29,315 bases of DNA, from the UHGV virus genome UHGV-0059448; one strand, 5' to 3'. The notes under the pieces are model-generated. The model was not told where the DNA came from. It saw only the letters and a list, made by a program, of their open reading frames with translations, and searched no databases. The stretch comes from a virus. Below, piece after piece: positions 1-23,780 of the stretch. A program made the translations under genes and the position numbers. How positions within the stretch are numbered: the stretch's first letter is position 1; each line of letters opens with the position of its first letter.

Positions 1-201
1 TTATACAGAGTTGAGAGCCCTACTCCATACGTTTTTGATACGCTTTGTCGTGATCCACCGGTTGGCCTCATCGGGTGACATGTCGTGGTTAAGCGCGGCG
101 AGGTTGCGCACGAATGCGCTGGTCCGGACTATCTTGCGGCCAGACGGCTCGCGGGTGATCGACCTGTTGAAAGCTGAGATTTTATCGTCGTAACGCGGCA
201 T
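1..201 (-). CDS. small basic protein (66 aa) immediately downstream of a LexA box; function unknown, candidate SOS-induced regulator
   Basis: ATG at 201..199 with AGGGAGG Shine-Dalgarno about 5 nt upstream; 66 codons to TAA at 3..1. The ORF-track entry 1..264 begins at a TTG; the ATG with the strong SD is preferred. Arg/Lys-rich product not recognised as any named family. Confidence 0.6.
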   Translation of the reverse strand: MPRYDDKISAFNRSITREPSGRKIVRTSAFVRNLAALNHDMSPDEANRWITTKRIKNVWSRALNSV

Positions 202-221
202 GACTCCCTCCCTAAAATCTA

Positions 222-241
222 TACTGTGTATGCATACAGTA
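222..241. promoter_or_regulatory. LexA (SOS) box-like operator
   Basis: TACTGTGTATGCATACAGTA fits the LexA consensus TACTGT-N8-ACAGTA (CTGT at 224..227, ACAG at 236..239); lies in the 108-bp gap between stf stop and the start of the 1..201 gene, about 30 bp upstream of its ATG. Confidence 0.55.
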
Positions 242-2320: not shown

Positions 2321-2350
2321 TTAACCCCTCAAAAGAGGGGTTAATATTTT
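2321..2350. terminator. bidirectional rho-independent terminator between lipoprotein gene and J
   Basis: Perfect 10-bp inverted repeat TTAACCCCTC-AAAA-GAGGGGTTAA followed by TATTTT on the plus strand and by a T-rich run on the minus strand; sits between the convergent stops of the lipoprotein gene (2317) and J (2349). Confidence 0.7.
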
Positions 2351-5300
2351 AACCTGTGAATGAACCAGATCCGTGTGATACTATGATAGTAGGCGAAGAA
2401 ATTGACGCACCACTGTTATTTTGAGCGGACACTTTAATACGCACTGTTACGTTTGGACCTGTTACAACCGCAGAATGCATGATAAGTCTCTCCATGTCTT
2501 GCACGGATGAACCACTCTCATTGCCGTTAATATTGATTAGTCCTGCACCATTACCTTTAACGTTTGCTATAACACAGACGTGTCTTGCGTGCCCAGAACT
2601 GGATGAATCCGTATAAGTTATTACCTTTTCTAAAAGACCGTCACTAGACCGACTAACGTTAGTTCCGGTGTGCATATTTGCAATGTCCCCGATAAAACTT
2701 TGGGCTTCCACAGTCCCTTTGAATTTACCGCTTGTTGCTTGGATCTCACCAGTAAAGCTACCGCCACTAGCATATACTACACCTCTGACGGTCACATTGT
2801 TGAATTCAGCATCTCCAGCTTTATTCAACTTCCAACCAGCAGAACCAGCTGCATAGTTGTTGGACTGGATATAGTTGCCGATTTTGGCGTTCTCAATGGT
2901 GCCGTCCTGGATGAAGCTGGCCCGGATGAATGTCTGCCCGTTCTGGATCACGAACGGCAAAGCTACGCTATTTCCGGCTGCCGTGGTGACGGCGAAGCGG
3001 TCAGCCAGAAAAATTACCTGTGATTGCATGCCGCCAGGTGTATTTTGTACCCCTATGCCCATACCTGCAGCGTAATACTGGCCGTTAGCGGCAACGCCAA
3101 CTTTGATGTTGTACATCGCGTTTAGGTTGCCGTTTACATCTGCCACCGCCTGCGCCGTCTGGTTGATGGCTGCAGTCTGCCCGTTCACTGTCACCGTCAG
3201 AGAGTTAATCTTCGTGGCGGATGCCTGGGTGAAATCAGCCAGTGTCTCCGTCAGGTCGGTCGCGTTCGAAACATTCCCACCCGCAGACGCATCAAGCGTA
3301 ACCAATGCCCGGGCAACCGCCTGGCTGGTATCGGCAATGGTGGTGTCTATCCGGTCAATTTTTGCGACATTGCCGTTATTGGTGGCAGTCTGGGAACGGC
3401 GGGAAGTCACCTGCGCCAGGCTGTTCTGGATCACGGCAATTGATGAGTTTTTGACACCGCCGGTCATGCCGTCCATCGACACAGAAATCTCGTCGATCTT
3501 CACTTCGGCCTGAGCCAGCCCGTCAGCGTTCTCCAGGATGTCTTTCGCCTGCTGCTCGAGTTCGTCGGCATGGTTTTTAATTTCGTCAGCCATGCCAGCA
3601 ATTTTTTCATTGCTGTCCACCGCGTTCTCGATCAGGTCTTTGAACGTATCGGAGTCTTTAATTTCCTCCAGAATCACATCTGTGATATCGGAAACATCGA
3701 TGCTGGCCTGTCCTCGCACCCATTCTGTGTACCCTGATTCGTTGCCGCTGCGGTCCACCAGCTGCGCGCGGTACCAGAAAATCTGCCCAGCCTTAAGGCC
3801 CATCTGCTGATATTTGCGCTGCGGGTAAGGCACATCGGCCAGCAGCATGGCATCGTCTTCAGTACCGGTCAGGCTGTACTGAATTTCCGTCTTCAGCGTG
3901 TCGTCGGTATTCGCCTGGAATCCCCAGTTCAGCTCGATACCGAACACCACGTTTTCAGAGGCGATAAAGCCAACCGGCTTCGGTGGATTGCCCACTTTAC
4001 CCGTCAGCGTTTTCTCTTCTGAATAGCCCCATCCGGATGAAATTTCTGCGGCATTGATTGCGCGCACCCGCACCAGGTAGCGCCCGGCATAAATCCCCGG
4101 GACGTCGAATGACGTGGTGGAGGTGCGCGGCACGTTAACCCAGTTCCCGTCATTGCGACGCCACTGTGCCTCATACGCGATAGCATTTTTCGCCTGGTCC
4201 CAGCTGACGCGCATGGTCTCAACGCTGATATTCTGCTGAACGACAGAAAACGAACTGATCGCGATATTAGCTGGCGGGGACTGATTACCGGGCGGAATTA
4301 CACTTATTGGCCGCTGGTCGATAATGGCACCGGTATCGATACGCGCATATTTATCCGGATCGTGCAAAGCGCCAGCAATCGAATACGTTCCGTCATTATT
4401 ATCCGTAACGCTGATAACGCGATATTGCTGCGCGTAAAGCTCTTCAGACTCGACAATCCACACCGATTCCACTGCAGGTGTTTCGCTGTATGCCGTTGTC
4501 ACAGTGACGGCCCGCCCGTTTACGCTCTGTATCGTCCTGCTCTGCGATGCGCCGGACGGAAGGTTAACCATCAGACGGCTTCCGGGAGCGGCTGGCGAAT
4601 CACGATCAAGCGTGATAACGCGACCGTTAACCGCGCTGATGCGCCCTCCCATCACTTTTCCGGAAAGCAGCTCATCGGCAACCGCGATGATATAACCAGG
4701 CTGTGGGATCTTACCGTCAAGACCAACATCGAACGACACGATGCGATCCTTGTTATTGGTCAGGATACCCCAACGTCCTTTGCGGTTTGCCTCTGACTGC
4801 CGGGTACAACCAATGGCTGTCATTTCGAGCTGATTTGTGCCAAAGCGAGCAACGAGATCCTGCTCAAATACAGGCTCCATCGCATCCGCGTAGGCATTAC
4901 CCGGATCGGACCAGGAAACCAGTGCCGTGGTATAGCGGGTTTTGGTGGTGCTGCCCGAATAGGTAAAGCGCCCATTAACCACGTTTGCACGCGTGTAGCT
5001 GTAATCCACATCGCGGGGCATATCCGCCAGCGCAACGATTTGATCGCCACCCCAGTACGTCATGCCCCGGAATATCGCCGCAAAATCACGTAACACGGTA
5101 TAGGCGTCATTCCTCTCCTGCACGTACACGTTACAGGTATAGCGAGGCTCAGTGCCGCTACCGCCTTTACCATCAGGAACCGGCTGATCGCAATATTGCG
5201 CGACCTGATAAAGCGTCCATTTATCAATATTGGCCGCCGTCAGGCGATTGCCCAGCCCAAAGCGGTCGCTCACCACCAGATCGTAAAAAATCCAGGCTGG

Positions 5301-6143
5301 ATTATCCGTCCACGCCCACTTAAACGCCCCTGTCCATGTGCCGCTGTAGGTGCGGGTCTCCGGGTCATACGTATCCGGCACGCGGATAACGCGCCCGCGC
5401 GGTTCACAGGAAATTTGCGGGATGGAGCCGTTAAACTGGCTTGAGTCGAATTCGATGTACAGCAGCGCGGTATTTGGATAACGCAGTTTGGCGTCAATAA
5501 CCTCTGTGTAGCTCTGCAGCGTCATCGTGTCGCCAATTTTCGCGCTGTTGGCATCCGCCGTAAGCTTACGCAGGCGCACCGTCCATGTACTGCCTGCCTG
5601 CGGTAAGTCGATACGGTGGCTGCGTTCGTAGCCTGACGTGGTTTTCCCGGTGACGCTGGTATTAAGCACGGTCTGCCAGGTACCGCCATCTGTCTGCAGA
5701 TCGATAGCGTAATTAATCGAATAGCCGACCAGATCGCCGTCGTCCTCCTGTTTAAACAGTGATGGCCATTTGAGGCGCAGACGAATGGCTGACAGCTGGG
5801 TGTTGGTAAAGGTATGCGTCCAGGCCGTAGCGCTTGACACTTCGGTGCCCACGCTGATTTCATTTTCTGTGCCGGGGATACCCTGAATATATTTTTGTGC
5901 CTGAGTCCCCGGACGAAATTCCCACGCCACGCCACTGAAGTTTTGCGATCCGTCTGCATTCTCCAGTGGCGTGCCATCGAGATAGATATCCTTCGCCGTC
6001 AACTGCCCTGCAAATTCGCCCTCTCCCAGTGCAACAAGAATTTTGGCTTTCGCTACGGACTGGAGATCGTCTGGTTGTTCAGTCGGGGTGCGTGAACTGG
6101 AGCTGCCGCCCTTGCGGCCTCTAATCGGAGTAGATGTAGCCAT
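2349..6143 (-). CDS. J: tail tip host specificity protein J
   Basis: 1264-aa ORF, ATG at 6143; blocks such as YPNTAL, YCDQPVPDG, GTEPR recalled from lambda J; last gene of tail operon after I. Confidence 0.95.
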   Translation of the reverse strand: MATSTPIRGRKGGSSSSRTPTEQPDDLQSVAKAKILVALGEGEFAGQLTAKDIYLDGTPLENADGSQNFSGVAWEFRPGTQAQKYIQGIPGTENEISVGTEVSSATAWTHTFTNTQLSAIRLRLKWPSLFKQEDDGDLVGYSINYAIDLQTDGGTWQTVLNTSVTGKTTSGYERSHRIDLPQAGSTWTVRLRKLTADANSAKIGDTMTLQSYTEVIDAKLRYPNTALLYIEFDSSQFNGSIPQISCEPRGRVIRVPDTYDPETRTYSGTWTGAFKWAWTDNPAWIFYDLVVSDRFGLGNRLTAANIDKWTLYQVAQYCDQPVPDGKGGSGTEPRYTCNVYVQERNDAYTVLRDFAAIFRGMTYWGGDQIVALADMPRDVDYSYTRANVVNGRFTYSGSTTKTRYTTALVSWSDPGNAYADAMEPVFEQDLVARFGTNQLEMTAIGCTRQSEANRKGRWGILTNNKDRIVSFDVGLDGKIPQPGYIIAVADELLSGKVMGGRISAVNGRVITLDRDSPAAPGSRLMVNLPSGASQSRTIQSVNGRAVTVTTAYSETPAVESVWIVESEELYAQQYRVISVTDNNDGTYSIAGALHDPDKYARIDTGAIIDQRPISVIPPGNQSPPANIAISSFSVVQQNISVETMRVSWDQAKNAIAYEAQWRRNDGNWVNVPRTSTTSFDVPGIYAGRYLVRVRAINAAEISSGWGYSEEKTLTGKVGNPPKPVGFIASENVVFGIELNWGFQANTDDTLKTEIQYSLTGTEDDAMLLADVPYPQRKYQQMGLKAGQIFWYRAQLVDRSGNESGYTEWVRGQASIDVSDITDVILEEIKDSDTFKDLIENAVDSNEKIAGMADEIKNHADELEQQAKDILENADGLAQAEVKIDEISVSMDGMTGGVKNSSIAVIQNSLAQVTSRRSQTATNNGNVAKIDRIDTTIADTSQAVARALVTLDASAGGNVSNATDLTETLADFTQASATKINSLTVTVNGQTAAINQTAQAVADVNGNLNAMYNIKVGVAANGQYYAAGMGIGVQNTPGGMQSQVIFLADRFAVTTAAGNSVALPFVIQNGQTFIRASFIQDGTIENAKIGNYIQSNNYAAGSAGWKLNKAGDAEFNNVTVRGVVYASGGSFTGEIQATSGKFKGTVEAQSFIGDIANMHTGTNVSRSSDGLLEKVITYTDSSSSGHARHVCVIANVKGNGAGLININGNESGSSVQDMERLIMHSAVVTGPNVTVRIKVSAQNNSGASISSPTIIVSHGSGSFTG

Positions 6144-18785: not shown

Positions 18786-18988
18786 GCGTAAAATCCTGCC
18801 GGTCCCCGGCGTCGTGGAGTGGTGCCAACCTGTGACTCAAGTTCGGCAATGTATTTTTTCAGGTCACTGACGGAGGTCGCGGTAAACTCAACCCGCCGGC
18901 CGTCTTTTTGCACCGTTGCCACCCGCTTTCCCATCATGAGATCGTGCAACGCAGCGCGGGCGGCATCCAGATCAGTCTGTGTCGCCAT
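18782..18988 (-). CDS. W: head-tail joining protein W
   Basis: 68-aa ORF; [42 protein letters not shown] as in lambda W. Confidence 0.95.
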
Positions 18989-20910
18989 TATTCATCTCCA
19001 GATAATGCCCTGGCATAATCAGCCAGGGTTTTGTTATTGGTCCGGTTCCCCTCTTCCTCCAGTAGGCTCGCGAGCAGTGAATCAAGATTCAGTTGCCATC
19101 GCGAAATACTGATCCGCAGGGCAGCCAGCGCGTACACGAAGCAGTCCAGCGCCTCATTTCGTCGCTTTTTGCTGTCCCAGACGATTTTCTTACGCCCGTC
19201 CACCCATTTTTCAACCTGCTCCTCAGCAGTAAGCTGCTGCGCCTCAGCCAGATCATAAATTTCGGGGTTATTGGGAAAATGCACGGCACCGGCAAGAGGT
19301 TCACTCCCTTCCGGCTGAAGTGTGAAGCGGTTATAAATCTGCTCCTTTGCGGTATCAGTCCCCACTTCCGTCAGATAAACGCCGTTCTTGTTGCGTTTAC
19401 GCGGCATATTCGCGACAGGCTTACCGTAAACGGAAGCCCCTTTAATCGGGATCACGCGAAACAAACCATGCTTTTTTGAGCGATTGTAGACAATGGTGGG
19501 GTCAATACCGCCGATATCCCAGCAGATACGGGATACCGACATTTCCACGCCATTCTTTCGGAGATAGGTTTTGTTAATCGCCTCGTCCACCCTGACGAGG
19601 GTCGCTTCATCATCATGACGGCCCATAATGATCTGCCGGTCAATCAGCCAGCTTTCCTCACCGGGCCCCCATCCCCAGACGCGCATTTCATATCGATCCA
19701 GTTGGGAGTCGATCCCGGCTGTCAGATAAGCAACACGCTCCGGTACGGATGCCCCGAAGAACTCTTTGCGTTCGGCCATGAGCTCCGCGTCAGGCCGTTC
19801 ACCAATTTTAGGCTCCCATGTTTCGCCCAGAGTGGTGTTCACGAAGGTTTTACGCTTTCCTGTATCCCCTTTCGTTTTTAGCCAGTCTTTAACGATCTGA
19901 ACCCAGGTGGTAAACGGGCTGTATGCCGTCCAGATGTGAAACGTCACGCTGTCTGGCGGGTCGATTTCGGTGCCTGTTGATGAAAACCAGGATAAACCGT
20001 CGCGCGTCCAGATCCCGGTGGTGTCGCAGATGTAACGAGCTTCAGTGAAATCCAGCTCCTGCTGCTTAATGACGCAGGCATTATGTTCACACAGGTAAAA
20101 GACGCTGGAGGGTTCGCCCGGTGTCCATTTCAGCCCGAACGGGGTCTCTTTGTCGCCGAATTTAAGGTACTGCTCTTCACCACAGTGCGGACAGGCAACA
20201 TGAAAACGCATGAAATGCCCGGACTCGCTGGCAGCACGCTCAATCTGGCAGGTCCCCTTTGTTTTTGGCGTTGAGCCGCGAATAGATTTGGGCCAGACAG
20301 ACCCCTCAATACGTTTATCACCCAGGAACGTCGGGGATCCCTCTTTCTCAATATCTTCATCGAATGCCGCCAGTTCATCGTAACCGGCGACATCGACCGA
20401 TTTCTCACGATAGTTTTTCGCCGCTTTACCACCCAGACACCAGAACCCGCGACCGTTGGAGAAGCGTTTCATACTGAGCGTATTGTCCCGGTGCTTTTTT
20501 CCATACCAGGGGGCCAGCGCCAGAAGTGACGGAATATCGCGAATCGTCGGCTCAACATGCGACTTCATAAAGTTTTCGGCGTCACCATCAGTAGGCAGCC
20601 AGATAAGGGAATTTCGCTGCTTGTGCTGAATAAAATACGCATAAACACCCAGCAACATTTTTGAATAGCCAACACGGGCAGACTTAACAACGTTGACCTC
20701 ACGTATGTAATCGTTACCCATCGCATTCATGATCGCGCGTTGAAACGGCAACGTTTCCCAGCGCCCTTCCTGGTAGGCCGACTCTTTGGGGAGATAGTAA
20801 TTATCGTCTGCCCATTCAACCGCCGTTTGCGGCTCAGGTCGGTACAGCGAAAGTAGACCCGCGCGCGCAGAGTGCTGCAGCCCCTTAACCTGACTGTTCG
20901 ATATATTCAC
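18988..20910 (-). CDS. A: terminase large subunit A
   Basis: 640-aa ORF starting at a GTG (20910..20908) that overlaps the Nu1 3' end, as in lambda; MNISNSQV... and extended collinearity with lambda A as recalled. Confidence 0.97.
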
Positions 20911-21430
20911 TCAGCAACCCCGGTATTATTTCATCCAGCGCAGCTGCTTTGTTCATGGCTTTAATGATGTCCTTCTTGAGGAAATCAATATGTCGGTTTT
21001 CCAGCTCCGGGAAGCGCCGCTGAACCGACAGAGGAACTCCATCAAGAATGCTGGCTACTTCTCCGGCCATCCGCGACAGCACGAACGTGCAGAATGCGGT
21101 TTCCACCACCTCAGCGGAATCTTTTGCATTTTTTAGTTCCTGGGCATCTGCCTGCGCTCGGGTGAGGCGGTGACGCTCATAGTCAATCGTACCAGGCTGA
21201 AGGTCGGATTCCGATGCAAGACGAAGGTCTTCCACCTCCTTCCGTAATTTCTCATTCTCAATCGCCGCGTCGCGTGCGGAATACCATTCGATAGCCGCGG
21301 AAGATTCATAGAGGACCTCATTACCTTTTCCACCGCCACGTGCTACAGGCATTCCCTGATCCTGCCAGTTCTGAATGGTTCGCACGCTGACCCCAAATAT
21401 TTCAGAAAGACGCTTTTTGTTGACCTCCAT
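20885..21430 (-). CDS. Nu1: terminase small subunit Nu1
   Basis: 181-aa ORF beginning MEVNKKRLSEIFGVSVRTIQNWQDQGMPV... (HTH), ending ...SEYIEQSG as in lambda Nu1; first gene after cos. Confidence 0.95.
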   Translation of the reverse strand: MEVNKKRLSEIFGVSVRTIQNWQDQGMPVARGGGKGNEVLYESSAAIEWYSARDAAIENEKLRKEVEDLRLASESDLQPGTIDYERHRLTRAQADAQELKNAKDSAEVVETAFCTFVLSRMAGEVASILDGVPLSVQRRFPELENRHIDFLKKDIIKAMNKAAALDEIIPGLLSEYIEQSG

Positions 21431-21650
21431 AGCTCACTCCATACACAAAAACAGAGAAAGGAAACGCCCTCTGGCTATTTAGCCGTTTTTAAGGCTTATC
21501 ATTTCCTTTCTTTTCAGGGGGTGTTTACAGTTAAAACAATGAATTAGCGAGAAGAAGAACGGAAACGGCAAATGCCTGAAAATTTTCATAAATAGCGAGA
21601 ATCTGCGCGGACGCCGCCCCGTAACAAGGCGGATCGCCGGAAAGGACCCG
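21431..21650. other. cos: cohesive end site cos (cosB-cosN-cosQ region)
   Basis: Plus-strand CGGACGCCGCCC at 21608..21619 (minus strand GGGCGGCGTCCG) differs at 2 of 12 positions from lambda cosN GGGCGGCGACCT as recalled; flanks toward Nu1 contain lambda-cosB-like strings (TTTCGCTATTTATGAAAATTTTC on the minus strand). Confidence 0.8.
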
Positions 21651-21677
21651 CAAACGACAATAATTATCAATTGCACA

Positions 21678-22406
21678 CTATCGACGGCACTGCTGCCAGA
21701 TAACACCACCGGGGAAACATTCCATCATGATGGCCGTGCGGACATAGGAAGCCAGTTCATCCATCGCTTTCTTGTCTGCTGCCATTTGCTTTGTGACATC
21801 CAGCGCCGCACATTCAGCAGCGTTTTTCAGCGCGTTTTCGATCAACGTTTCAATGTTGGTATCAACACCAGGTTTAACTTTGAACTTATCGGCACTGACG
21901 GTTACCTTGTTCTGCGCTGGCTCATCACGCTGGATACCAAGGCTGATGTTGTAGATATTGGTCACCGGCAGAGGTGTTTCGATTGCCGCTGCGTGGATAG
22001 CACCATTTGCGATAGCGGCGTCCTTGATGAATGACACTCCATTGCGAATAAGTTCGAAGGAGACGGTGTCACGAATGCGCTGGTCCAGCTCGTCGATTGC
22101 CTTTTGTGCAGCAGAGGTATCAATCTCAACGCCAAGCGTCATCGAAGCGCAATATTGCTGCTCACCAAAACGCGTATTGACCAGGTGTTCAACGGCAAAT
22201 TTCTGCCCTTCTGATGTCAGAAAGGTAAAGTGATTTTCTTTCTGGTATTCAGTTGCTGTGTGTCTGGTTTCAGCAAAACCAAGCTCGCGCAATTCGGCTG
22301 TGCCAGATTTAGAAGGCAGATCACCAGACAGCAACGCGCCACGGAAAAACAGCGCATAAAGCACTTCATTAGCAGCGCCAGATAGCGTAATGATTTTGTT
22401 ACTCAT
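21678..22406 (-). CDS. hypothetical protein (243 aa), function unknown
   Basis: ATG at 22406 (MSNKIITLSGAANEV...) with AAGGAAA SD, preferred over the upstream start at 22445; lies between an upstream terminator and cosQ; not recognised as any lambda gene. Confidence 0.7.
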   Translation of the reverse strand: MSNKIITLSGAANEVLYALFFRGALLSGDLPSKSGTAELRELGFAETRHTATEYQKENHFTFLTSEGQKFAVEHLVNTRFGEQQYCASMTLGVEIDTSAAQKAIDELDQRIRDTVSFELIRNGVSFIKDAAIANGAIHAAAIETPLPVTNIYNISLGIQRDEPAQNKVTVSADKFKVKPGVDTNIETLIENALKNAAECAALDVTKQMAADKKAMDELASYVRTAIMMECFPGGVIWQQCRR

Positions 22407-22517
22407 GGAATATTTCCTTTTAGGCGTGAGCCTGTCGCACAGCAAAGCCGCCGAAAGTTAACGGTTTGCCCAGGCTCACAACTGAAAGACTTTCTACGGT
22501 GTGCGCGTGCGATGCGC

Positions 22518-22545
22518 ATAAAAAAGCCCCGCATAGGCGAGGCTG
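22518..22545 (-). terminator. rho-independent terminator after the peptidase gene
   Basis: Minus-strand RNA AGCCUCGC-CUAU-GCGGGGCU followed by UUUUUUAU, about 20 nt after the stop of the 22563..23465 gene. Confidence 0.6.
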
Positions 22546-22562: not shown

Positions 22563-23465
22563 TTAAGACTGGATATTCCAAATCATTGCGTTACCGTTAT
22601 GATTTTCAATGATTTTTGCCAGTGGTGCTCCACCAAAAGAATGCATGTAGCTGTGATGTATAGTCAAAACCAAATCTTGAAGTACTTGATCACTTTCAAG
22701 TTCGGTAACATTCAACCCAATTTTCTGCGCCTTATCAAAATGAATATGACGCGAGTGGGTATAGGTTGTGTGATGGTTGTTTAACTCTGAACAAACATGT
22801 GTTGCTTTTGATTCTGCCTCAGGATCATTATCAAACATGCCTGTCATAAGCCAATGCTTAACAATCTCATTTGCCCATTTGATTGCTTTCTCACACTCGC
22901 CGATGATCGTCGGGTTTAGCTTTTGAAGAATGAACTGCCACATCTGAACAGCTGCGGGATTTTGAAAAATTTCCGTCTGCGCACGATTCCATTCTTCAAT
23001 GATGGCATGGGTGGAGAAACCGTTGAACTGAGGATCAATTGGGCCAATGTTGGACTGTTTACCCATGATGATTTCATTGGCACAACATGCAAGCATAGTT
23101 CCGCAGGACATTGAAATCATAGGAACAATTGCTCTGATGTTAGTTCCAAACTTCGACCTTAAGTAATGCCCGATTGATTCCAAAGCGGCAATATCACCAC
23201 CTGGAGTATGAAGTATCAAATCCAACCCTTTTGATACATCTAAACCATTGATGGCTGTCATCAACCCGTTCTTATCATCATCAGTCATCTGAGTAAGATG
23301 GCGTACTTCTGCACCACCATGCTGTAACCACCCTGAGTAATATGTGATTACATTTCTTCCAGTATGATTCGAAAGTTGAGATAAGTATTTACGGCGAACC
23401 TCATCCATAGGACTTTTATGGGCGAGAGCCGTTATCTCGCCCAGTACGTCGCTCCAATTAGGCAT
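22563..23465 (-). CDS. ClpP-fold serine peptidase-like protein (S49 / serine dehydrogenase proteinase-like), accessory
   Basis: 300-aa ORF, ATG at 23465; motifs LILHTPGG and ISMSCGTMLA followed by IGPIDPQ resemble the oxyanion/nucleophile regions of ClpP/S49-family peptidases; lower GC than structural genes; second such protease in the window besides C. Family assignment is from motif recognition only. Confidence 0.65.
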   Translation of the reverse strand: MPNWSDVLGEITALAHKSPMDEVRRKYLSQLSNHTGRNVITYYSGWLQHGGAEVRHLTQMTDDDKNGLMTAINGLDVSKGLDLILHTPGGDIAALESIGHYLRSKFGTNIRAIVPMISMSCGTMLACCANEIIMGKQSNIGPIDPQFNGFSTHAIIEEWNRAQTEIFQNPAAVQMWQFILQKLNPTIIGECEKAIKWANEIVKHWLMTGMFDNDPEAESKATHVCSELNNHHTTYTHSRHIHFDKAQKIGLNVTELESDQVLQDLVLTIHHSYMHSFGGAPLAKIIENHNGNAMIWNIQS

Positions 23466-23468
23466 AAA

Positions 23469-23669
23469 TCAGTACGTGTAAAGTTGATGACTTGTAGTTT
23501 GGTTTTGCTTCGATTGTGTAGCGGTACCTTGTGAGTACCAAACACCTGTGTTTCCACTCGTACTAGTTTGCTGTGCCATTACACGAGAAGCGAAGTTGTT
23601 AACAGTTTCACCAGTCAACATTTCTGCCGGTTTGATATTGTAAACATCGTAGAACTCAGCTGGGGTCAT
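23469..23669 (-). CDS. small hypothetical protein (66 aa), first gene of the peptidase operon
   Basis: ATG at 23669 with AAGGAG SD 8 nt upstream; stop TGA 3 nt before the peptidase ATG (possible translational coupling); C-terminal half Gln/Thr/Ser-rich. Confidence 0.65.
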   Translation of the reverse strand: MTPAEFYDVYNIKPAEMLTGETVNNFASRVMAQQTSTSGNTGVWYSQGTATQSKQNQTTSHQLYTY

Positions 23670-23754: not shown

Positions 23755-23780
23755 TGCAAAAAGCCTCAAAAGAGGCTTGA
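23755..23780 (-). terminator. terminator-like hairpin downstream of the lysis cassette
   Basis: Minus-strand RNA AAGCCUC-UUUU-GAGGCUU followed by UUUGCACAUUU; lies 260 nt after the Rz stop and upstream of the small-protein/peptidase operon. Confidence 0.5.

Follow-up and report, generated by a model that had tools for sequence, protein, structure and literature searches.

What is the gene that stands last before cosQ in a phi80-like lambdoid prophage, and why does it have a leader that appears to fold? The question arises from the UHGV virus genome UHGV-0059448, a stretch of 29,315 nucleotides (hereafter the window), in which such a prophage lies in reverse orientation. Over the queried stretch, the window was 100% identical to prophages of E. 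coli YPE10 and other strains. An earlier description made from the letters alone (the sequence-only reading) had proposed a separately regulated cargo gene of 243 aa with a structured 5' leader, possibly working with the peptidase operon upstream. The protein family is already catalogued. The new part is the leader RNA, a conserved element of ~103 nt (22416-22518, minus strand) with two pseudoknots, found in front of many unrelated genes. We give a probability of about 0.55 to the reading that it is a cis-acting leader RNA of late transcripts, gating translation of the cargo gene.

On the gene strand, the element consists of hairpin H1, a purine-rich linker, the strand UCUUUCAG, the P3a/P3b/P3c hairpin and the strand CUAAAAGG, followed by the start codon (Table 1). 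The 9-bp perfect inverted repeat of the sequence-only reading (GTGAGCCTG at 22426-22434 and CAGGCTCAC at 22471-22479, plus strand) was found as described, and it is helix P3a. Its gene-proximal arm ends 19 nt before the ATG, matching the ~20 nt given earlier. The leader also lies where it had been placed, but its extent had to be revised: the element reaches 5' to 22518 (H1), and the terminator to 22544. P3 carries an extra apical hairpin in some copies. Folding of the leader, a check suggested with the sequence-only reading, gave a z-score of -2.73, and 2 of 200 shuffles folded equally well, which is modestly unusual. Such a single-sequence fold proves nothing alone; what lifts the structure above chance is that it is conserved and covaries in over 100 distinct homologues. 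Seen in these, it is far more elaborate and more conserved than one sequence could reveal. RNAalifold independently recovered H1, P3a and P3b.

Covariation was measured on a MAFFT alignment of 110 distinct sequences, made with no structural input. In this alignment 91.9% of the cells were paired, and changes on both sides were seen in 22 pairs, compared with 10.2 ± 1.6 in shuffles. All five measures exceeded 500 of 500 shuffles. As a control, the 3' partners were slid, and pairing fell to 38-47%. Two model-fitted alignments, A4 and A6, agreed with the MAFFT result. A6 is broader and includes the P22-type subfamily (see below), and both pseudoknot PK1 and the closing helix P0 were outside the model that made it. 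H1 was paired in 94-95% of the cells, with compensatory changes in 3 of 5 pairs, and P3a in ~99% (5 of 9 pairs). P3b had compensatory changes in 6 of 8 pairs. PK1 was 97-99% paired, and compensatory changes were seen in 4-5 of its 6 pairs, the count on A6 being 5; UA was replaced by CG in 13 sequences, and CG by UA in 9. In the second pseudoknot, PK2, all five pairs had changed on both sides. PK2 was off by one column in the alignments, and was hence also checked free of any alignment: the helix was present in 108 of the 110 sequences, with a mean of 5.9 bp and 21 distinct 5'-strand types, including CGAUA/UAUCG, CGAGACA/UGUCUCG, CCAAGAA/UUCUUGG and UCCCUAAG/CUUAGGGG. The covariation supports five helices and two pseudoknots.

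G-U pairs were frequent, with UG in 85-93 sequences in P0, and GU or UG in P3b and PK1. These would be A-C mismatches on the opposite strand, so the folded strand is the gene (mRNA) strand. The same result bears on whether the conserved unit might be DNA, either a promoter active in lysogens or a boundary sequence at which cassettes are exchanged by recombination. In phages with unrelated flanking genes, the leaders share 93-98% identity, and a role in lysogens could be anticipated for some downstream genes (glycosyltransferase-like). However, pairing-preserving changes in seven helices, including the two pseudoknots, together with strand-specific G-U pairs, are unexpected for a double-stranded DNA site, and the leader has no promoter consensus. 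We regard a DNA-level role as highly improbable. The sequence-only reading had proposed to look for a promoter after the terminator. None was found: a consensus scan of the minus strand from 22525 to 22406 detected nothing resembling a sigma-70 site, and the conserved DNA there behaves as RNA helices. In the same scan, the orf66 gene had no promoter of its own upstream, as a moron would. Also considered and dropped were a promoter of the sigma-54 or sigma-70 kind within the hairpin and an integron attC-like single-stranded DNA site.

Enterobacterales phages and prophages yielded more than 130 distinct copies of the element, among them copies in phi80, HK639, HK106, the mEp phages and P22. BLAST with the 150-nt leader returned 42 phage records (67-98% identity), whose contexts were otherwise unrelated. 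The leader follows the major tail gene in HK639, and the lysis genes in mEp213, mEp237, mEp390, HK106 and 2B8, as well as in Klebsiella, Enterobacter, Cronobacter and Salmonella phages. phi80 carries the element twice, ahead of rha and again ahead of orf66. A further 50 distinct copies from IMG/VR and ~40 from GTDB genomes came from pattern scans; their hosts belong to many Enterobacteriaceae genera, with Erwinia, Pantoea and one Cobetia in addition. A covariance model further detected divergent copies before rha of P22 and JEP4, and second copies in several contigs. The P22-type subfamily comprises ~20 distinct sequences. The window-type element was present in 115 of 5426 complete E. coli genomes, including laboratory strains that carry phi80, and E. 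coli Nissle 1917 has a variant that is 80% identical.

Two leader copies were seen in loci L001 (phi80), L014, L020, L090, L106, L151, L163, L346 and L389. Paired copies often differed in subtype (short, long or P22-type) and stood before different cargo genes of one late operon. In Elizabethkingia phage EKP1 (L008) and Aeromonas phage AsXd-1 (L010), the leaders were 80-94% identical to the E. coli type and were accompanied by lambdoid lysis cassettes; either these host assignments look doubtful, or the transfers look very recent.

The position of the element relative to its surroundings was nearly constant. A terminator hairpin with a T run was found directly upstream in 82 of 109 homologous leaders (~75%), and an open reading frame (ORF) started 3-14 nt past the Shine-Dalgarno (SD) motif in 109 of 110 copies. 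The downstream ORFs fell into 19 unrelated clusters, mostly nucleic-acid-binding. The orf66-like mosaic superfamily accounted for 66 of them, 28 with a Phage_Tail_Tip match. Other downstream genes encode Rha, KilA-N, ANT and ORF11CD3 proteins, HNH endonucleases, a 485-aa protein resembling glycosyltransferase family 2, and others.

An ORF of ~485 aa with weak similarity to glycosyltransferase family 2 was found in 46 of 107 element-bearing loci (e.g., L005, L004, L019, L014 and L007), following the leader directly or after an orf66-like gene. This points to a two-gene cassette that recurs. The ORF is absent from the window. When the loci were clustered in six frames, the biggest "family" turned out to be an artefact, an ORF that runs through the element. 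Small hypothetical ORFs are also annotated over the leader, such as phi80 orf65 (L001 623-922, opposite strand), one in CharmingMan (L004 2525-2641) and others. They are probably artefacts, and the frame of phi80 orf65 is broken in the window.

This diversity of downstream genes limits what may control the leader. The leaders of rpsO (S15), the alpha operon (S4) and T4 gene 32 hold pseudoknots at the ribosome-binding site, which control 30S loading and are autoregulated by the encoded protein. The element is like them in that a pseudoknotted leader includes or abuts the ribosome-binding site. Autoregulation by the encoded protein was excluded, because the encoded proteins differ from copy to copy. 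A trans-acting factor of another kind, such as a host protein, a small RNA or a phage late protein, could instead bind the element as a translational operator, comparable to the 30S-trapping pseudoknot operators of E. coli rpsO and the alpha operon. Helix sequences that never vary (four P3a pairs and the P0 strands) suggest sequence-specific recognition, and the phenotype of Rha depends on the host factor IHF, as cited in PMC4936722. Against an operator, no protein family was common to all element-bearing loci within their 5-10 kb flanks. An IHF consensus was not visible in the leaders by manual reading, no scan having been run, and IHF is a DNA-binding protein. An operator of this kind appears rather improbable.

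The helix that connects the domain to translation is P0, which closes it. P0 pairs UCUUU-AG with CU-AAAGG and was 97% paired. Covariation in it was sparse, because P0 is nearly invariant in the main family. Nevertheless, both strands changed together in the ENT47670 lineage (CCUAC/AUAGG) and in the second copy of L163 (CCUUA/UAAGG; L163:5665). On the A6 alignment 3 of its 8 pairs were compensatory, e.g., G-C to A-U in 11 sequences. In a nested thermodynamic model, the SD and anti-SD strands paired with a mean probability of 0.78, and with a probability above 0.5 in 102 of 110 sequences. A pattern scan for the ENT47670 type gave ~120 chance matches and one true copy.

From these results we propose the following course of events. 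The leader has no promoter of its own, and would be transcribed only when Q-modified RNA polymerase coming from the late promoter passes the terminator at 22544-22519. The emerging RNA would fold into a compact domain, H1 first; the linker would then pair with the apical loop of P3 (PK2), and the H1 loop with the 3' bulge of P3 (PK1). P0 would close last, when UCUUUCAG pairs with CUAAAAGG, which contains the gene's SD. This rigid domain with its two pseudoknots would hold the ribosome-binding site in its base (directly against the base in the P22-type), and so limit or gate 30S loading. In this way, a putative DNA-binding cargo protein would be translated at a low level or conditionally from an operon that is itself very strongly transcribed. 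We infer both the read-through transcription and the repressive direction of the effect. A put-like antiterminator was dropped as an explanation, as the element lies downstream of the terminator that would need its action. The phi80 M3 RNA, which we take to lie near the late promoter, was dropped as an identity for the leader on that assumption alone.

The leader precedes rha in both phi80 and P22. Expression of rha of either phage harms phage growth only in IHF-deficient hosts, as cited in PMC4936722. The phenotype is suggestive of genes that are normally held down, and the leader may be what holds them down.

Several observations weigh against translational gating by SD pairing. For a plain translational damper, a simpler fold than a double pseudoknot would suffice. 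Two sequences carried an uncompensated U-to-C change in P0 (CUUCCAG), and these were all that pattern scans for variants of the anti-SD strand gave; the conservation of P0 could reflect sequence recognition instead of pairing. In the P22-type, P0 and P3a are fused into a single helix of 17-18 bp, and the best SD motif (AAGG, CAGG or UAAGG) lies outside it, 2-4 nt 3' of the helix, so that simple SD occlusion is not universal. In the long variant of the rha type, the nested thermodynamic model leaves the SD unpaired with the anti-SD. Because the P22-type SD adjoins the helix, what is conserved is the placing of the ribosome-binding site at the base of the knotted domain, either within this base or immediately adjoining it.

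Among known RNAs, leaders that sequester the ribosome-binding site (riboswitch platforms and fourU thermometers) are the natural comparison. Like them, the element stands directly 5' of an ORF, its UCUUU pairs with the AAAGG of the SD, and its structured domain is conserved and covarying. It differs from them in the double pseudoknot, the unrelated downstream genes and the P22-type SD beside the helix. The UCUUU:AAAGG pairing of a fourU thermometer is there, but it closes a large pseudoknotted domain and not a simple hairpin. As an expression platform, P0 pairs the SD in the main type at the frequencies given above, and leaves it outside the helix in the P22-type.

The element could sense a metabolite or an ion, as a new riboswitch class in which the double pseudoknot is the aptamer, P0 the expression platform and the state of the host the switch. 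A length of ~100 nt, two covarying pseudoknots and an apical insertion of variable length give it an anatomy that aptamers typically have. The conserved structured domain with covariation that riboswitches show was present, since 0 of 500 shuffles matched it and the slid controls collapsed. Invariant nucleotides cluster at junctions (C41, U44, A46, G47, G93 and A96-G98), and the ribosome-binding site is inside the closing helix. The downstream genes, in contrast, share no metabolic theme, the positions that vary least are in the helices P0 and P3a and not in loops, and no ligand can be proposed. We therefore hold ligand sensing to be unlikely.

Comparison with Rfam 15 (4227 families, at a permissive E-value) left the element unmatched in the window, phi80, P22, ENT47670 and Dewey. 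The chance matches were driven by the terminator: SorY scored 21 bits against a gathering threshold of 111, and GcvB 21 against 42. No match was found to the Rfam consensus of the self-cleaving classes hammerhead, twister, twister-sister, pistol, hatchet, HDV-like and glmS. In the Pistol ribozyme, which is often phage-associated, the loop of a 5' hairpin pairs over ~6 bp with the internal loop of the next hairpin. The element likewise has a 5' hairpin loop pseudoknotted with the following hairpin. It differs from Pistol in the location of the pseudoknot strand (3' side of the internal loop), in the second pseudoknot and in being twice as long, and the Pistol model RF02679 gave no match at E ≤ 1.

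These comparisons bear on a further possibility, that the element is a module for RNA processing or stability, containing an RNase III or RNase E site or a self-cleaving ribozyme. Cleavage would release the cargo cistron from the lysis transcript and expose the ribosome-binding site, and the structured 5' end left behind would protect the mRNA. Comparable RNase III sites lie between genes of phage T7 and in the lambda N leader. The position is suitable: the element occupies an intergenic gap between cistrons and immediately precedes the ribosome-binding site. So are the long helices (17-18 continuous bp in the P22-type; in the window, ~18 bp for P3a, P3b and P3c together, with a 3' bulge) and the AU-rich single strand UUUUUUAU between the terminator and H1. 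Known RNase III sites, on the other hand, have no pseudoknots filling bulge and loop, and no Rfam ribozyme family matches the element. A processing role is thus improbable in our view.

On balance, translational gating in cis is the preferred reading. The leader belongs among structured cis-regulatory leaders, and the possibility of a new riboswitch or ribozyme class is a real one. A bolder version would make it such a class, ligand-sensing or self-cleaving, carried as a portable module for DNA-binding cargo. This might explain the 40-year-old Rha/IHF phenotype; we consider it possible but doubtful.

Table 1 Features of the leader element, the orf66 gene and their surroundings. Positions are those of the window, unless given as amino acid (aa) residues of the gene product.
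Feature	Position	Strand	Details
Terminase large subunit	18988-20910	minus	
Nu1	20885-21430	minus	
cos	between 21430 and 21677		
Fur-box-like sequence	21650-21674		14/19 to GATAATGATAATCATTATC; best in the whole 29-kb window; between stop codon and cosQ
Coding sequence, phi80 orf66 / N15 gp59 family	21678-22406	minus	242 aa; ATG at 22406-22404
Winged helix, MarR-like (predicted)	aa 10-80		AlphaFold
J-tail-tip-fibre-like segment	aa 83-154		low AlphaFold confidence
Two long helices, coiled-coil-like (predicted)	aa 98-114 and 182-230		AlphaFold
P0, 3' strand	22416-22423	minus	CUAAAAGG; holds the sole SD-like motif before the start codon
Long hairpin P3	22426-22479	minus	
P3a	22471-22479 with 22426-22434		
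P3b	22465-22470 with 22441-22446		
P3c	22462-22464 with 22448-22450		
PK1, 3' strand	22435-22440	minus	P3 3' bulge, GUGCGA
PK2, 3' strand	22453-22457	minus	apical loop, CUUUC
P0, 5' strand (anti-SD)	22482-22489	minus	UCUUUCAG; nearly invariant
PK2, 5' strand	22490-22494	minus	linker, GAAAG; extendable by U22489
PK1, 5' strand	22507-22512	minus	H1 loop, UCGCAC
Hairpin H1	22502-22518	minus	UGCGC-AUCGCAC-GCGCA
Intrinsic terminator of the upstream SDH-protease operon	22519-22544	minus	stem AGCCUCGC/GCGGGGCU 22525-22544; U run 22519-22524

The gene behind the leader is phi80 orf66. It shares 97% nucleotide and 98% protein identity with phi80 orf66 (PHI80_66, ORF x171.28; "similar to N15 gp59") and its position, as the final gene before cosQ. 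The protein matched phrog_17079 over its full length (E = 1e-168). The NCBI family name is "Fur-regulated protein", and the family is common in prophages of Citrobacter, Salmonella and E. coli. The absence of a lambda counterpart, as stated in the sequence-only reading, was borne out. Its ORF was also correct; the protein has 242 aa, and the stop codon accounts for the 243. An automated ORF call extends the gene upstream to a TTG at 22445. The ATG at 22406 was preferred because homologues begin at this ATG and because an SD precedes it (AAAGGA).

In phi80, orf62, orf64, orf65 and orf66 were deleted singly by He et al. (2024), and a titre defect was reported only for orf64, the anti-Tai gene (PMC11364771). 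The region upstream of the packaging genes is an immunity hotspot inside the Q-dependent late operon of phi80 (PMC11364771). The gene of the window is orf66, not orf63 or orf64 (TaiEcA and AtiEcA), and thus not a member of the Tai/Ati pair; its protein had zero matches among the PADLOC defence models. orf66 is non-essential, exchangeable late-operon cargo with a domain of predicted DNA-binding type.

This domain is at the N-terminus. AlphaFold, run on a 69-sequence alignment that included 50%-cluster representatives, modelled residues 10-80 with a confidence score (pLDDT) above 90; on a shallow alignment of 33 close homologues, pLDDT was only 37.5. From the model, the N-terminus is confidently predicted to be a MarR-like winged helix, a fold of the DNA-binding type. 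The likeness to the MarR family is in this fold; after residue 80 the architecture of orf66 differs, with helices and a J-like beta segment. The N- and C-terminal dimerisation helices of MarR were not found in the orf66 protein, no Pfam MarR model matched at E ≤ 0.1, and a sequence search of the PDB gave no relative. The family is small, with only 107 related clusters among 1.8 billion cluster representatives. It is strongly mosaic: recombination shuffles the N-terminal ~85 residues separately from the C-terminal parts.

Homology to a packaging or structural protein, which the sequence-only reading had named as evidence against itself, was found in weak form. The single above-threshold Pfam match was to PF09327 Phage_Tail_Tip (J central fibre). 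It is partial (aa 119-154; 26.8 bits, cut-off 22) and spans just 36 residues, positions 74-109 of the 139 in the profile. Compared pairwise, the gene product and the J protein of the window share 30% identity across 67 aa (E = 0.002). J, the tip attachment protein (2349-6143, minus strand), has the full Phage_Tail_Tip at aa 992-1129, and the cargo protein resembles its residues 1022-1088. Tai defence systems reportedly act on the C-terminal part of J (PMC11364771). A role of orf66-like proteins as decoys is conceivable but purely speculative.

The sequence-only reading had linked the gene to the peptidase operon upstream. This partnership gained no support, since what precedes the same leader-plus-gene module varies widely: rha-tai-ati in phi80, lysis genes in mEp213 and mEp237 and, for the leader, the major tail gene in HK639. 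In phi80, rha-taiEcA-atiEcA (then orf65) occupies the slot of the window's SDH-protease operon. A promoter-like site and a terminator of its own set the operon apart as a separate unit. The terminator stem has 8 pairs, 6 of them G-C, followed by the T run, and was also present in the minimum-free-energy fold. What stands of the earlier proposal is the exchangeable cargo and the structured leader; the peptidase link and the promoter do not.

The operon's two genes, a 66-aa ORF (23469-23669) and an SDH-type ClpP-like serine protease (22563-23465, minus strand), resemble a self-contained moron. Its order is a terminator-like hairpin (~23757-23778), a promoter-like site (23752-23723), an SD, the two genes and the terminator (22544-22525).

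The family name raises the matter of Fur. The Fur-box-like site of the window lies behind the gene (Table 1), and a scan of the window showed none in the leader. Through the Fur-titration clone x171, this site may be the source of the "Fur-regulated" name. No demonstration of Fur regulation of the orf66 gene was found in the literature.

The literature, searched by sequence string and by topic, gave no description of the element, and nothing was annotated under it in RefSeq (complete E. coli genomes). The element is widespread in late operons of lambda- and P22-like phages and apparently undescribed: an elaborate, conserved RNA fold that stands unannotated in classical phages (phi80, P22, HK639 and HK106) and in ~2% of complete E. 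coli genomes. It marks exchangeable late-operon cassettes in a hotspot of defence and counter-defence. It may serve as a natural insulator part. If ligand sensing or self-cleavage were true, it would be a new RNA class that has gone unnoticed for decades. For the phages themselves, the element offers a handle on how they set the dose or timing of potentially toxic accessory proteins, such as Rha, KilA-N, Ant and HNH nucleases.

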